64,000 nucleotides of DNA, from contig CALSNU010000002.1 in NCBI GenBank assembly GCA_943787795.1, positions 384,001 to 448,000 on the forward strand, in the 5' to 3' direction. How positions within the stretch are numbered: the first letter of the stretch is position 1; every line of letters starts with the position of its first letter. Shown here in pieces: positions 34,044 to 46,086 of the stretch. The stretch comes from an uncultured bacterium. GTDB lineage: Bacteria > Planctomycetota > UBA1135 > GCA-002686595. The translations under genes were made by a program, and so were the position numbers. Below the pieces are notes generated by a model. That model was not told where the DNA came from. It saw only the letters and a program-made list of their open reading frames with translations, and did no database searches.

Positions 34044-34099
34044 CCGTGATTCCAGAGCCGTGGTTCCAGAGCCGTGGTTCCGGGGCCGTGGTTCCGGGA
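34044..34099. repeat. Intergenic 14-bp tandem repeat, four copies (consensus ccgtggttccagag), plus a degenerate fifth
   Basis: ccgtgattccagag ccgtggttccagag ccgtggttccgggg ccgtggttccggga. Confidence 0.85.
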
Positions 34100-40928: not shown

Positions 40929-41921
40929 TCAATCTGTCCCCAGCAGCTGCGCGGGAGCCCCCGGATCGGGGGTCTGGGGCAGGCTCCGCAGCGCGACGAG
41001 CGCCGCTCCGACCACGTTCGAGGCCCGGGGGGCCACGCAGCGAGCCGCAGGAACCCGGCGCTCCACGGCGCGGTGGACGAGCTCCCGGTAGGCCGGGACG
41101 TGCTCGCCGAGCCCCCCCGTCAACGCCACTTCCAGGGCCCCATTCCCGAAGTCCAGGGTCCTTGAGACCGCCTCGACGCACTCTGCGAGGCCATCCGCGC
41201 CCTCCTTGAGCAGTCCGAGGGCCACCGAATCGCCGGCATCTGCTGCCTCTGTCACGAGGCGCGCCAGCGCCGCGCGGCGGGACCGCACCTGGGTCCCGCT
41301 ATCGATGACCGGGAGCAGCTCGCGCATCTGTCCAAGTCCCAGGGTCTCCATCACCCTCGCCTCGAGCGCGGTGGCCGGCCCGCGTCCATCAAAGGCCCTG
41401 ATGGCCGCAATCATCGCTCCGGTCCCAAGCCAGGTCGCGCTCCCCACGTCATCCAGGAGGCTCCCCCAGCCCCCGCACTGGAACGTGCGCCCCGATCCGT
41501 CTCGGCCGTAGCAGGAGCTCCCGGTCCCGGCGATCAGGACGATCCCATCGCCGCCACCGAGCCCCCCGGCGAGGGCACCCACGAGATCGATGTCCACCGC
41601 GACCGCGCCGGGGGCCCCGATGCCGACCCTGGTGACCACGTCACGGACCGCCTCTCGGTTCCCAGGGGTCCCGACGCTCGCCATGGCGCAGAACACCGAA
41701 TCGGCCCGTCGCGGTTCGGCCCCGGCAGCGGCCCAGGCTTCACGCCAGGCCTCCTCCAGGTGCGACGCGAGCCGCGCCTCGCCCACGTCGTGGAGGTTGC
41801 CGCTCCCGCTCTGACCCTGGCCAAGTCTCCGACCGTCCCCGCCGACCAGCAGGACGCGAGTGCTCGTCCCGCCGCCGTCGATCCCGACGGCGACCGCCCC
41901 TGAGAGTGCCGACTCAGTCAC
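40929..41921 (-). CDS. BadF/BadG/BcrA/BcrD-family ATPase (N-acetylglucosamine kinase-like)
   Basis: GIDGGGTST, LIAGTGS, GGWGSLLDDVGS, LTGG, VGAA. Confidence 0.88.
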   Translation of the reverse strand: MTESALSGAVAVGIDGGGTSTRVLLVGGDGRRLGQGQSGSGNLHDVGEARLASHLEEAWREAWAAAGAEPRRADSVFCAMASVGTPGNREAVRDVVTRVGIGAPGAVAVDIDLVGALAGGLGGGDGIVLIAGTGSSCYGRDGSGRTFQCGGWGSLLDDVGSATWLGTGAMIAAIRAFDGRGPATALEARVMETLGLGQMRELLPVIDSGTQVRSRRAALARLVTEAADAGDSVALGLLKEGADGLAECVEAVSRTLDFGNGALEVALTGGLGEHVPAYRELVHRAVERRVPAARCVAPRASNVVGAALVALRSLPQTPDPGAPAQLLGTD

Positions 41922-43044
41922 CGGACCCCAGCGCCTCGAGCGCTTGAGTCACCCGCGCACGGTCAGGGTCAAGCTCGAGGGAGCGCTCGTACGCGACTCG
42001 CGCCTCGGCTGATCGACCGAGCTTCGCCAGCACGTTGCCACGGTGGTAGGCGACGCGCGCGAGGCTCGGCATCAGGTCGCCCAGGGGGTCCGCGAGCTCG
42101 TACTCCTCGAGGTCCGAGAGCGCGCGCTCCAGCTCGAACTCGCCGCTCGACCGCGCCTTCGCGGCCTGGTACATCGCCTGGAAGGAGCGCTGGGTCCTGG
42201 GCTCCTCGACGAGCCGATCAAACTCGGCCGCCGCGCCGCGCCACTCGTCCTTCTTGGACAGCAATTCGCCAACGTTGTAGATCACGTCAGGGTCGTCCGG
42301 GCGGCCCTCCTGCAGCGCGCGGAACCCGGCGAGCGCCTCGTCGATGCGCTCATCGTCCCCGACCAGCAGCTGGACCTCCCAGAAGTCGCGGCGGAAGGCG
42401 TCGAACTCCCCGAGCTCCTCGATCAGCCCCCTGGCCTTCTTCTTGTTCCCGATGGGCCACGGTCCAAAGGCGTAGACGATGATCTGGCGCACGCGCGCGT
42501 CCACGTTGGAGGGGTCGAGGGCGACCGCTGCGGCCAGCTCCGACTGGTAGCGCTTCACATCGTCGAGGGCGCCCACCATGGCAGCCACGCCACCCGTCTC
42601 GGCCTCCTTCACGACCCTCGCCATGATCGTCTCCGCGAGGATGAAGTGCGCCTGACTGTTCCCCGGGAGGCGCTCCACTCCCGTCTCCGCGAGCTCGAAG
42701 GCGCGGTCGAGGTCGCCAGTCATCCGGTTCCCCTCGGCGAGCAGGACCGTGAGGAGCCCCTGCTCCTCGCCGATCGCCTGGGCCAGGGCAGCCTCCACAC
42801 GCACGATCACCGCCTCCATCGCCACGCGATCCACCATCTCGCGGAGCCCCTCGAGATCGGGGAGGGGACGGGCGTCATCGCTCAAGTCCAGCTCGATGGC
42901 GCGGGCGCCAGAGCCGCTCGCGCGCGCGGCCTCAATCTCCTCGGCGCTGAGGTCCGTCGAGTCCGCCCCGGCCTTCATCCAGACGGCGAAGCTGACGATC
43001 GAGAGGACGATGAGCCCCAGGAGGAAGGTGATGAAGCGAGCCAT
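41914..43044 (-). CDS. Membrane-anchored TPR protein
   Basis: N-terminal TM helix; TPR motifs (VIYNVGELL, AYHRGNVLAKLG..EARVAYERSLELDP). Confidence 0.8.
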   Translation of the reverse strand: MARFITFLLGLIVLSIVSFAVWMKAGADSTDLSAEEIEAARASGSGARAIELDLSDDARPLPDLEGLREMVDRVAMEAVIVRVEAALAQAIGEEQGLLTVLLAEGNRMTGDLDRAFELAETGVERLPGNSQAHFILAETIMARVVKEAETGGVAAMVGALDDVKRYQSELAAAVALDPSNVDARVRQIIVYAFGPWPIGNKKKARGLIEELGEFDAFRRDFWEVQLLVGDDERIDEALAGFRALQEGRPDDPDVIYNVGELLSKKDEWRGAAAEFDRLVEEPRTQRSFQAMYQAAKARSSGEFELERALSDLEEYELADPLGDLMPSLARVAYHRGNVLAKLGRSAEARVAYERSLELDPDRARVTQALEALGSGD

Positions 43045-43082: not shown

Positions 43083-44411
43083 CTAGTCGCGCTCCAATCC
43101 GGACTCTGACGGCGAGTCCCGCCAGGTGGGGACCTCCGGGCGCGGAATCCAATCGACCCCATAAAGGGAGGCGAAGGTCGGCGCGAGGCGGTCGTCGGTG
43201 AGGGAGAGGTGGAAGCCGACCGGGCTCGGGCCGAGGTCCTTGCCTCGACCGTTGAAGGTCGTCCGGCCCCAGCGGGTCCCGACGGCGACGAGCTCGAGAG
43301 CCTCGAACGAGCGGTCCTCGAGATCCAGAGTCGCCGTGCCGAGGAGCTCGCACTCGAGGCCGTGGGGGATCCTCCGCCGGGGGGTCCAGTTGTTGTCCCC
43401 CAGGAGCCAGGTGTCCGCCGATCTCGCCTTCGTGCTCCCGGAGAGCTCGACCGTCACCTTCGGGCCGTTCACCTCCACCACTCGACCAACGAGCCGCGCG
43501 CGCTCGATCTCCGCCGGGGCGTAGGGGAGGGTCTGCCCGCGAGCGTCGTCCACGAGGGCGTACCGCGCCAACCGGTCGGCCAGCGGCTGAAGGTCGATGC
43601 CCTCCGGTCCTGCAGGTCCAAAGAGGACATCCGCGAGGTCGGGCAGCATCGCCTTCACCTCCCCCTTCGAGTACCACACGGTGTCCCGGTTCCAGCGGTT
43701 CGAGGGGCTCGCGCTCAGCCCCTCGGGGGAGAGGTCGCGTGAGATCCTCGAGAGGGCCAGGCCGCCCTCGGGGAAGCCGTCCTCCCAGCGGTGAGCGGGG
43801 GCGCGATCCGCCTCGGGGTCCAGCCGCCGCTCGTCCTCGGTCAGGTCACCCCAGCGCTCCAGGGCCGCGTCAAGCATGGCGCCCACCCGCTCCGGCGAGC
43901 GGGAGTTGATGCGCCCGAGCACCTTGCCTCCAGGCGAGAAGACCCAGAAGCCCTGACGGGTCCCGCCGTCGGTGATGCGCTTGCCGCCGTTGCTCCAGCG
44001 CTGGAACAGGACGCAGTCGTCCTCGGATCCTCGCTGGAGGCGCCAGACCTCGTCCGCGGCGCAGGTGAAGCGGGCCGCCCGCTCGACGACCTCCTCGGTG
44101 AAGACAGACCTCCGGTCCGCCAGGCCATTGCCTCACGTGCACCCGAGCGGGTGCCCATTCATCAGCCAGAGCAGGAGCGGCCGCTCCTGCTCGCTCGCTC
44201 GCCGCACCCCGTCCATGAAGGTCGGCTCCCAGGCGATCTGAGCGAAGCGCAGGTCAGCCGCACCGGGCAGCAGGTGCGCGCGCCAATCCTCAAGGTCGAC
44301 GCGTCGCAGGAGGGGGCTGTCGACCTGAGATCCCGGGGGCGCCTCTGCAGGCAACGGCTGAGCCGGCGGCTCCTGCTGGAGCGCCGCCACGAGGAGGGAC
44401 GTGATGAGCAT
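43083..44411 (-). CDS. Probable exported selenoprotein (442 aa, Sec93 in a C-T-U-G motif, thioredoxin-like N-terminal domain)
   Basis: Single in-frame TGA at 44133-44135; frame stays open to TAG 43083; SECIS-like hairpin 11 nt downstream of the TGA. Confidence 0.8.
44103..44121 (-). promoter_or_regulatory. Bacterial SECIS-like hairpin
   Basis: mRNA: UGA-GGCAAUGGCCU(11 nt)-GGCGGACC-GGA-GGUCUGUC; 8-bp stem with two G.U pairs and a G-initiated loop. Confidence 0.7.
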
Positions 44412-44469
44412 GGGGCGAGCCTACTCGCTCACCCGCCTTCCGTCGAAGGGGCGTTCGGCGCCAGCCCGC

Positions 44470-46086
44470 TCAGTCCATGTGCGCGACGACGCGCTCGTCG
44501 CCCATCTGGAGCTTGAGCGCCACGCGCTGCGCGACCTTGCCGAAGAGGTTCTCCCACGTGCGGATGAAGCCCTTGACGGAGACGCGGCGGATGAAGTCCA
44601 CCGTCGTCCAGTAGCGCGGGCCGCGCAGCCCCTGGGCCTTGGCGTAGAGCTTGGCCTGCTCGGACACCATCCACTCGCTGTGGAGCATGTACATGATCAG
44701 GTAGAGCCGGCTCAGCCAGATCTGACGGATCATCGGCTTGATGAAGCGCATCATCCACGGGTTGCGGATGACGATCGGGAACAGCTTGTGGAGGTTCTCG
44801 ATCTGCCGCTTGTTCTCGAACTCGATGGACGAGGTCCGGTTGAACTTCACGGGGAAGTCGTCGTAGGCGGCGACCGCGTAGCCCATGTCCTCGGTCATCT
44901 CCTCGATGTCGAACATGGGGTACGGCTGCATGATCGAGACCAGCGGGTGGTCGACCTTGCAGCGAATGTTCAGCTCCACCGTCTCCAGCTCGTCGTCGAG
45001 CGAGGCGCCGGGCCCACCGAGCATGTTCAGGGAGCCGAGGCGGATGTCGTGCTCCTTGATCCAGCGCGCGGAGTCCTCGAGCTGCTGGAGCGTCGTGTTC
45101 TTGCGGAAGACGGCGTTACGGATGTAGTCGTTGGCCGACTCGAAGGCGATCCGCGCGTAGACGCAGCCTGCCTTCTTGAGCTTCTCGATGTGGTGCTCCC
45201 GCGTCATGTTCGCCATCAGGATGACGTCGAAGGGGAGCCCCACCTCCTTGGGGTACTTCTCGCAGAACTCGTCGAGCCACTTGCCCGAGAGGTTGAAGAT
45301 GTCGTCGAGGAAGTGGACGAACTTCAGGTTGTACTTGTCGCGGACGTCCTTGATCTCGGCGATCACGTGGTCGACGGTCCGCTTGCGCACGTACTTGGCA
45401 TTCGTGGTCCCGACCACCTTCTTCTTCAGCGCGTGGTGGAAGCAGAAGGAGCAGTTCATCGGGCAGCCGCGCTGGGTCACAAAGACCTTGCGGTCACTCT
45501 CTCGATAGAGGGACCCCGCGTCGTAGACGATGGAGCGATCGGGGAAGCCAAGAGAGTCCAGGTCCTGCACCGGCGGGCGCTGGGAGTTCTTCTGGATCTC
45601 ACCGGTCTCCCGGTCGCGGAACCACATGTTCTGAACGAACTGGTAGTCATCCCCTGCGGCGAGCAGGTCCAACAACTCCACGGTCGCCATCTCGCCCTCA
45701 CCGCGGCAGATCGCGTCCACGTGATCGTTGAGCTCGATCACCTCGGGGCTGAAGGTGGGGTGCGGTCCTCCGAAGAGGATGAACACGTCGGGGAGCTCGG
45801 TGCGGATGCGCTTCGCGATGTCCAGGAAGTACAGGTGCATCCCGGTGGTCACCGAGAAGCACACGACGTCGGGCTCGTAGTCCTTCGTCTTCTGGATCCA
45901 GTCGGTGTCCGGCAGGAAGAGCGCCTGCGCCTGGTGCCCCGCGTCCTTGATCGAGCGGCTCAGCCACATGAGCCCGAGCATCTCCTGCGGGAGATAGTCG
46001 TTGATGAAGAGGACCTTCATCGACTTGACCGGGCTCCTGGAGGTGATCGCCGTGGCCGTCTCGGGGCCGATATCGGTGAGCGTCAT
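44470..46086 (-). CDS. Cobalamin-binding radical SAM protein
   Basis: LGLMWLS, LFGGPHPTF, RGEGE, RGCPMNCSFC (CxxxCxxC), FLDDIF. Alternative start at 46020. Confidence 0.92.
   Translation of the reverse strand: MTLTDIGPETATAITSRSPVKSMKVLFINDYLPQEMLGLMWLSRSIKDAGHQAQALFLPDTDWIQKTKDYEPDVVCFSVTTGMHLYFLDIAKRIRTELPDVFILFGGPHPTFSPEVIELNDHVDAICRGEGEMATVELLDLLAAGDDYQFVQNMWFRDRETGEIQKNSQRPPVQDLDSLGFPDRSIVYDAGSLYRESDRKVFVTQRGCPMNCSFCFHHALKKKVVGTTNAKYVRKRTVDHVIAEIKDVRDKYNLKFVHFLDDIFNLSGKWLDEFCEKYPKEVGLPFDVILMANMTREHHIEKLKKAGCVYARIAFESANDYIRNAVFRKNTTLQQLEDSARWIKEHDIRLGSLNMLGGPGASLDDELETVELNIRCKVDHPLVSIMQPYPMFDIEEMTEDMGYAVAAYDDFPVKFNRTSSIEFENKRQIENLHKLFPIVIRNPWMMRFIKPMIRQIWLSRLYLIMYMLHSEWMVSEQAKLYAKAQGLRGPRYWTTVDFIRRVSVKGFIRTWENLFGKVAQRVALKLQMGDERVVAHMD

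Follow-up and report, generated by a model that had tools for sequence, protein, structure and literature searches.

A probable selenocysteine codon within a single gene

The locus at positions 43083 to 44411 (minus strand) of the window, the whole stretch of 64,000 nucleotides analysed here, raises the question whether an in-frame TGA ends one gene ahead of another or is read through as selenocysteine (Sec). Under translation table 11 the region is split into an ORF of 92 amino acids and a GTG-started ORF of 279 amino acids, which share one frame. With one Sec codon read through they form a single gene of 442 codons, running from an ATG at 44411 to a TAG at 43083, whose sole internal TGA is codon 93 (44135-44133, minus strand; context GHPLGCT-U-GNG). 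It is practically certain, in our judgement, that the apparent stop in this gene encodes Sec. This reading is based on the conservation of the TGA, homologs with Cys at the site, a SECIS-type hairpin and the Sec machinery. The first-pass annotation had joined the two ORFs through an in-frame UGA, and the shared frame and the retention of the TGA across relatives bear this out. Its remark that codon usage looks coding past the TGA is likewise confirmed: GC3 is 0.86 before the TGA, 0.90 in codons 94-163 (the stretch outside every listed same-frame ORF) and 0.90 thereafter, so that it lies at 0.86-0.90 throughout the junction.

A base-call error at the TGA was ruled out, since two contigs, one from a DNA run (43192-44490) and one from an RNA library (43996-44217), span codon 93 and carry it unchanged (the comparison is of contigs only). 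The metagenomes carrying DNA of this region are marine and estuarine, and the named relatives of the gene belong to the Planctomycetota. A 2026 review ties bacterial selenoproteins mainly to anaerobes; the present carrier, by contrast, lives in the marine plankton.

Conservation and distribution of the family

TGA occupies the codon-93 column in 114 of 122 aligned copies (window included), which are kin and not independent events. The other eight have TGT (two), GAC (two), TCA, TCG or GTC, or do not cover the column (one); as segments were cut at TAA or TAG, a copy split by such a stop would appear in this last class. Copies were taken from 110 profile-search loci, 8 named loci and the window, with two duplicates from its own genome excluded; the 110 loci consist of 30 given by the tool and 80 hand-picked regions, among them the long open frames and the weakest of the matches listed. 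The TGA is retained in all 8 named GTDB loci, and together with the 114 of 122 copies this rules out a TGA that arose by chance.

Two genes separated by a conserved true stop, or a pseudogene, might be supposed here because database entries almost always hold the two halves separately, as the first-pass annotation had expected of standard pipelines. All 21 N-terminal database fragments stop at HPLGCT, and all 75 near database matches span 52-78% of the query, with scattered starts downstream of the UGA. This scatter argues against two genes, and agrees with the earlier observation that the downstream part has no convincing start of its own. Moreover, a stop at this site would bisect one thioredoxin (Trx) domain, fused homologs exist with Cys at the site, and in the 114 copies the stop-like codon is always TGA and not TAA or TAG. 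We regard this alternative as highly improbable.

A wide search returned 1243 clusters at 50% identity (E up to 0.001). Among the 150 matches listed of these 1243 clusters, 13 are full length, and 7 of the 13 have Cys at position 93, as would be expected of Cys-containing homologs of a selenoprotein; the two TGT loci are two of these seven. In the sampled loci Sec nearly always prevails over Cys at this position. By profile search the family is present in 123 of 401 Planctomycetota genomes, with up to 5 copies per genome and 182 matches in total.

Several copies depart from this pattern. Three (L064, L067, L065) form a subclade from which both Cys and Sec have been lost, and a selA match is absent in two of these genomes; in L065 the copy stands in tandem with a TGA copy. 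A further non-Sec copy (L068, genome P0129), which lies a few kb away from a TGA copy, is fused C-terminally to a kinase-like and repeat region, and another (L063, P0145) reads C-N-C and has a long C-terminal extension (domains named by eye in both cases).

Selenocysteine machinery and SECIS-type hairpin

All four components of the Sec machinery occur in the genome that carries the window, selA, selB and selD above cut-offs and tRNA-Sec (selC) at 69 bits. SelD itself is a selenoprotein in this genome (C5:186257-187201; in-frame TGA, C-A-G-U-A-A-K), and its gene adjoins selA. A selA match is found in 119 of the 123 genomes with the family, against 169 of 278 other genomes. Two of the four family genomes without selA have TCA or TCG copies, one has a copy without an in-frame N-terminal part, and one has TGA in a genome that is 67% complete.

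A change of the genetic code or general readthrough, with UGA read as Trp or Cys, has nothing direct in its favour. UGA terminates ordinary genes, and also this gene in 4 of 7 complete named loci; the only tRNA with a TCA anticodon is tRNA-Sec, tRNA-Trp having CCA; and homologs have Cys or Ser at the site, none Trp. Such decoding is thus very improbable.

A bacterial SECIS-type hairpin is found at 44103-44121 (minus strand), +12 to +30 after the UGA; its stem is 8 bp long, its loop starts with G and lies 18-19 nt from the UGA, and its folding energy is -10.0 kcal/mol. The bSECIS model given in the accessible part of PMC13188914 has a loop of 3-9 nt with G in the first two places, 16-37 nt past the UGA, and at most -7.5 kcal/mol; the window hairpin lies within these limits. 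Many homolog hairpins are weaker than -7.5 kcal/mol in an ungapped test. Among 111 distinct rows, same-register pairing amounts to 75.1% of cells, compared with 68.3 in shuffled rows (0 of 500 as high) and 34-43% when the register is slid, by controls that ignore kinship and protein constraint. Inner pairs are kept in 104 and 100 of 110. The 61-nt region taken as a whole folds no better than shuffles (z -0.37). Within the hairpin region, the Arg codon at U+7 is CGC in 10 of 113 copies, whereas CGC makes up 41% of Arg codons genome-wide in the window's own genome.

A probable exported thioredoxin-fold protein

The predicted model, with Cys in place of Sec, has a pLDDT of 93.2 and a pTM of 0.89. 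Sequence and low pLDDT (residues 1-30) indicate a signal-peptide-like N-terminus of about residues 1-12 (44376-44411, minus strand), after which a linker rich in Pro and Ala extends to about residue 32. In a simple test of our own, an N-terminal hydrophobic stretch is present in 108 of 112 TGA copies compared with 19 of 570 internal control windows, in agreement with the earlier suggestion that the protein is exported; a similarly simple test finds a lipobox-like motif in 14 TGA copies.

Residues 33-195 (43827-44315, minus strand) form a Trx-fold domain of the Thioredoxin_7/UAS/AGR type that is continuous past the TGA, with pLDDT above 90 over the junction. The thioredoxin-like fold that had been proposed is therefore given by the model and by the fold search alike, and the proposed helix and strand ahead of Sec appear in the model as residues 65-75 and 79-84, respectively. 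Residues 55-193 share the fold of Thioredoxin_7 (PF13899), DsbD-gamma, DsbH, AGR2-3, ERp18 and UAS proteins (Z 8-12), the best matches being 3f9u (Z 11.9, rmsd 2.2, 115 aligned), 2lst (Z 10.7) and AGR3 (Z 10.4). Weak Pfam matches to domains of this type occur in 4 of 28 family members (best E 0.003). Thioredoxin_7-type proteins differ in their CxxC or CxxS motif, in a Pro that precedes the strand and in an active-site loop that is shorter; they lack both the beta domain and a Sec at this place.

The redox residue lies at the N-terminus of the helix that follows the first core strand, as in the Trx topology. Sec93 (44133-44135, minus strand) stands at the start of helix 94-102 and aligns with the Sec of SELENON-type proteins and with the first Cys of the Thioredoxin_7 CxxC, Gly96 falling on the second. 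The CxxC and cis-Pro features of Trx are absent, being replaced by U-x-x-G and Gln153; the latter is found in 113 of 128 aligned family members, at the place where SELENON-type proteins conserve Pro. Cys91 (44139-44141, minus strand), which forms a C-x-U motif, is a candidate resolving thiol, present in 108 of 128 members and absent in 20. In the segment from Gly96 (U+3) to Arg100 (U+7; 44112-44126, minus strand), Gly is found in 117 of 128 members, and all 113 distinct TGA contexts have Arg. The gene product is thus very probably an exported redox protein of the Trx fold.

The same gene with the same ancestry might instead use its Sec to attack a small molecule, either a peroxide or, as in deiodinases, a carbon-halogen bond, in a pocket of His87, Asn95, Arg100, Gln153 and Trp82. 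The canonical second Cys is absent, there is no Pro at the cis-Pro position, and the polar residues around Sec are strongly conserved. In addition, C-T-U presumably resembles the deiodinase motif, and we take Gln, Trp and Asn to resemble the GPx tetrad. Against this, no match to a peroxiredoxin, GPx or deiodinase family was obtained in 146 and 28 members scanned, and the best fold matches are of the DsbD, DsbH, AGR and UAS types. Chemistry on a small molecule is accordingly considered rather unlikely, with reduction of an oxidised sulfur the preferred reading.

Probable relationship of the thioredoxin domain to SELENON

When a natural Cys homolog was used as query in an Atlas feature search, the top match was a 'Selenoprotein N' cluster (0.89), taken as a lead only. 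A short SELENON motif, scanned against metagenomes, then yielded 31 loci. Nine of these (one near-duplicate aside) are full-length animal-type frames with an N-terminal hydrophobic stretch and S-C-U-G. One protein (L168; 1170-2396, minus strand) is apparently bacterial, having a signal of the lipoprotein type and lacking an EF-hand; an EF-hand is found in 7 of 9 SELENON-type rows scanned. The SELENON label of these sequences refers to motif and architecture as described in the accessible parts of PMC12839072 and PMC7474598, and not to a named database match; the SELENON-type alignment, used as query for homologs, retrieved a single protein and nothing named SELENON.

Profiles of the family's Trx domain align with SELENON-type profiles Sec on Sec, at Prob 89% and E 2e-6 in one comparison and at 95% and E 4e-8 over 127 columns with another SELENON-type profile. 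A further run gave 97.4% over 128 columns, with 31% identity, a score of 73 and U-x-x-G-x-x-x-R common to both. As a control, a generic Thioredoxin_7 profile matches the same domain at Prob 96.7% and E 5e-10, with a score of 62 over 96 columns and 16% identity. With so small a margin between the two profiles, the match of the Trx domain does not by itself single out SELENON. An HMM of the SELENON-superfamily Trx domain, built without the window's family, has this gene as its sole match in the window's own genome (E 0.019).

The Arg at U+7 (Arg100) takes the position of human SELENON Arg469, a myopathy site. The available text of PMC12839072 gives the SELENON motif as SCUG with human Sec462, and that of PMC8842757 lists p.Arg469Trp in rigid spine dystrophy.

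A SELENON-type profile matched 40 of the 401 Planctomycetota genomes. Ten of the 401 hold proteins in the SELENON order (beta domain, then Trx domain) with D-D-x-x-C-U motifs and TGA, and in most of the other matched genomes the match is a Trx-only one with TGA. Six of these ten also hold the window's family. No SELENON-order protein was found by profile in the window's own genome, which is 84.9% complete. A thesis reportedly describes a SelN ortholog in Poribacteria, and bacterial SELENON-order proteins are for this reason probably not new.

A tree of 72 Trx domains (a quick tree with a midpoint root and no outgroup, including 34 of 128 family members) places the window's family in one clade (support 99), which a long branch separates from the SELENON-type clade, and nests 8 animal-type rows among the bacterial SELENON-order rows (92). 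Since the window's family forms its own clade, while animal-type SELENON nests with bacterial SELENON-order proteins, these sequence comparisons identify the gene as a member of a sister family and not as a SELENON ortholog. The first-pass annotation had called the protein SelN-like, which holds as far as the alignment of U on U in profiles is concerned; orthology does not hold, given the separate clade, C-T-U in place of C-U, the lack of an EF-hand and Gln in place of Pro.

In animal SELENON/SEPN1 and the window protein alike, a hydrophobic N-terminal segment is followed by a Trx domain that faces an oxidising compartment; both have Sec at the same place and share U-x-x-G-x-x-x-R, the Arg being human R469. 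Animal SELENON has a type II anchor, S-C-U-G, a conserved Pro and the order beta-Trx, whereas the window protein has a signal of the cleavable type, C-T-U, Gln and the order Trx-beta. EF-hands, as in most animal-type rows, are not matched in the window protein and are also missing from bacterial L168. The in-frame bacterial SECIS of the window gene is a further difference from animal SELENON. Like the window protein, the bacterial SELENON-order proteins (L168, L171-L180) have an in-frame TGA with G at U+3 and with R at U+7, a comparable hairpin region and the same phylum, but they have the beta-Trx order and D-D-[EQ]-S-C-U-G-S-G, and it is their clade, not that of the window's family, which holds animal-type SELENON.

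It could be argued that the protein is an exported selenoprotein whose likeness to SELENON reflects the shared Thioredoxin_7/UAS fold only, with Sec gained independently and an unrelated beta domain. The nearly equal score of the generic Thioredoxin_7 profile speaks for this, as do the ordinary Trx-like chains that the models of the window protein and of the SELENON-order protein both match, the weak statistics of the beta domain, the long branch between the clades, C-T-U as opposed to C-U, and Gln in place of Pro. On the other hand, U-x-x-G-x-x-x-R is common to both, the alignment is longer and its identity twice that with Thioredoxin_7, a collinear beta-domain alignment beats all shuffles (see below), the order of structural elements matches, and the Atlas lead points the same way. 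We consider independent origin unlikely, and specific kinship of the window's family with SELENON likely. Sec decoding is compatible both with independent origin and with attack on a small molecule.

The beta domain and its order

A large antiparallel beta-sheet domain with the conserved segment R-L-A-R-x-H-L-x-D-x-x-R-G occupies about residues 205-425 of the model (43137-43799, minus strand); its counterpart in SELENON is probably the beta domain located ahead of Trx. In profile comparisons it is not significantly similar to animal-type sequences only (E 0.13), but reaches E 0.0067 with a mixed SELENON-type set and E 4e-4 with 13 bacterial SELENON-order sequences, a weak match (Prob 35%) over 127 collinear columns. 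This alignment scores 32.1 compared with 13.7 on reversal, and 0 of 100 block shuffles score as high (best 30.1). When the columns of the two domains are swapped, the alignment extends from 124 to 282 columns and the score increases from 82 to 98; 0 of 40 shuffles are as high (best 95.8 vs 98.3).

An independent model of a bacterial SELENON-order protein (pLDDT 92.5) has the same order of elements as the window's beta domain, namely a strand, a strand-helix, a short strand, a helix, four long strands and a final strand, with one extra hairpin in the SELENON-order model; this is a comparison of element order only. Together these results moderately favour homology of the beta domain with the middle domain of SELENON in swapped order. 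The first-pass annotation had described an additional C-terminal domain: a domain does follow Trx, but it is probably not an extra one, since on moderate evidence it appears to correspond to the domain found ahead of Trx in SELENON. A swapped order, if true, would be a case of natural circular permutation, which escapes ordinary sequential searches.

An Atlas search with a beta-domain-only homolog gave no SELENON row and was uninformative, and fold searches with whole models, whose lists were filled by the Trx domain, gave no name for the beta domain. The only beta-sheet row among the fold matches, NspA (Z 6.3), was rejected as being within the range of common arrangements. Viral structures gave no fold match at E <0.001.

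Catalogue status

Pfam, NCBIfam and PDB sequence searches returned no family for the window protein; matches to ExtJ (E 0.24) and Nef (E 0.2) are at chance level and were discarded. NCBIfam and Pfam cut-offs were reached neither by the window's family and the SELENON-order proteins nor by the five that were scanned of 19 other Trx-Sec proteins. In Table 1 of PMC13188914 (2026), a catalogue of 119 families, neither the HPLGCTU motif nor this architecture nor a SELENON-like family was found in the part available. The Trx-like selenoproteins catalogued there (VPGUxxT NF041382/NF041383, Trx-like Sec.1 CxU and UGC TlpA) share with the window protein the Trx fold and SelB-type recoding, but yield weak matches in 2 and 1 of 28 family members (E 0.012-0.021) and none for the window protein. 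The accessible text of PMC7016017 places SelN among metazoan accretions. A literature search, mainly of the main texts of open papers, gave no description of the family or of a bacterial SELENON relative.

The window's family is a real, widespread and uncatalogued selenoprotein. With 123 of 401 sampled Planctomycetota genomes and 1243 clusters at 50% identity, it adds a large family to the bacterial catalogue.

Proposed mechanism and evolution

As a whole, the locus is fairly likely to encode an exported two-domain Sec reductase, sister to SELENON and with the order Trx-beta. SelB and Sec-tRNA would bind the hairpin just past the UGA and insert Sec at codon 93, as the conserved UGA, the hairpin and the machinery suggest. 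The protein would then be exported to the periplasm, some homologs having a lipobox. In the Trx domain, Sec93 occupies the attacking position of the usual CxxC, and Gly stands in for the usual second Cys. For this reason we propose that a periplasmic substrate with an oxidised sulfur, either a disulfide or a sulfenic acid, is the target of the Sec93 selenolate and that Cys91 resolves the intermediate, giving a C91-U93 selenenylsulfide. A membrane electron donor may then re-reduce C91-U93, and the beta domain, to judge from its conserved R/H/D/R/G segment, might serve in recognition of a substrate or partner. The cycle would be of the reductase type, resembling that reported for SELENON, which the available part of PMC7474598 describes as a reductase with the attacking residue at its Sec. 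Reductase chemistry of the window protein is slightly favoured.

In evolutionary terms, the window's family is probably a sister family inside a SELENON-like superfamily of Planctomycetota selenoproteins, Trx-beta as opposed to the beta-Trx of SELENON. A broader scenario, to which we give an even chance, is that SELENON, so far treated as metazoan, is a member of a superfamily of bacterial exported selenoproteins that is most diverse in the Planctomycetota. The window gene would be a circularly permuted branch that catalogues have missed and that probably ranks with the commonest selenoproteins of the phylum, and the ancestor of animal SELENON would be a bacterial beta-Trx protein to which an EF-hand and an anchor were added. 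The family connects human SELENON, about whose structure and substrate chemistry little is known, with soluble bacterial relatives that have the disease-site arginine in common with it and for which expression, crystallisation and substrate trapping are feasible. If the superfamily scenario is true, soluble bacterial forms would offer tractable models in which to study the fold of SELENON, its catalytic cycle and variants that cause myopathy, such as R469W.

Genomic neighbourhood and further candidates

The gene is flanked by a B12-binding radical SAM protein gene 58 bp upstream (44470-46086, minus strand) and a TPR protein gene 38 bp downstream (41914-43044, minus strand; likely start 43044), both linked to it in close kin only. 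None of the five nearest genes is found again in more than 9 of 118 loci, and these loci are all close relatives; the neighbourhood thus supports no operon-based function and offers no clue to the substrate. A sigma-70 promoter and a minus-strand terminator were looked for and none was found. Elsewhere in the window, a 14-bp unit is repeated in tandem in about four copies at 34044-34095, in a stretch that looks intergenic.

Beyond the window, the same genome holds a second exported Trx-like gene with an in-frame TGA (C2, about 247290-248390, plus strand; V-P-G-V-W-U-P-G) and a hairpin after it, which matches the family profile weakly (E 0.025). At least four more architectures combining a SELENON-like Trx domain with an in-frame TGA are seen in 19 loci (L182-L200), with motifs such as D-x-G-L-U-S-A-G-H-S-L-R, D-K-E-G-C-U and D-Q-C-U-I-G-G; 5 of the 19 were scanned against NCBIfam, with no match. 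Finally, in three close relatives (G401:C26, G405:C210 and G402:C205) Thioredoxin_7 matches with one internal TGA lie beside a long Thioredoxin_7 gene, possibly representing another selenoprotein.
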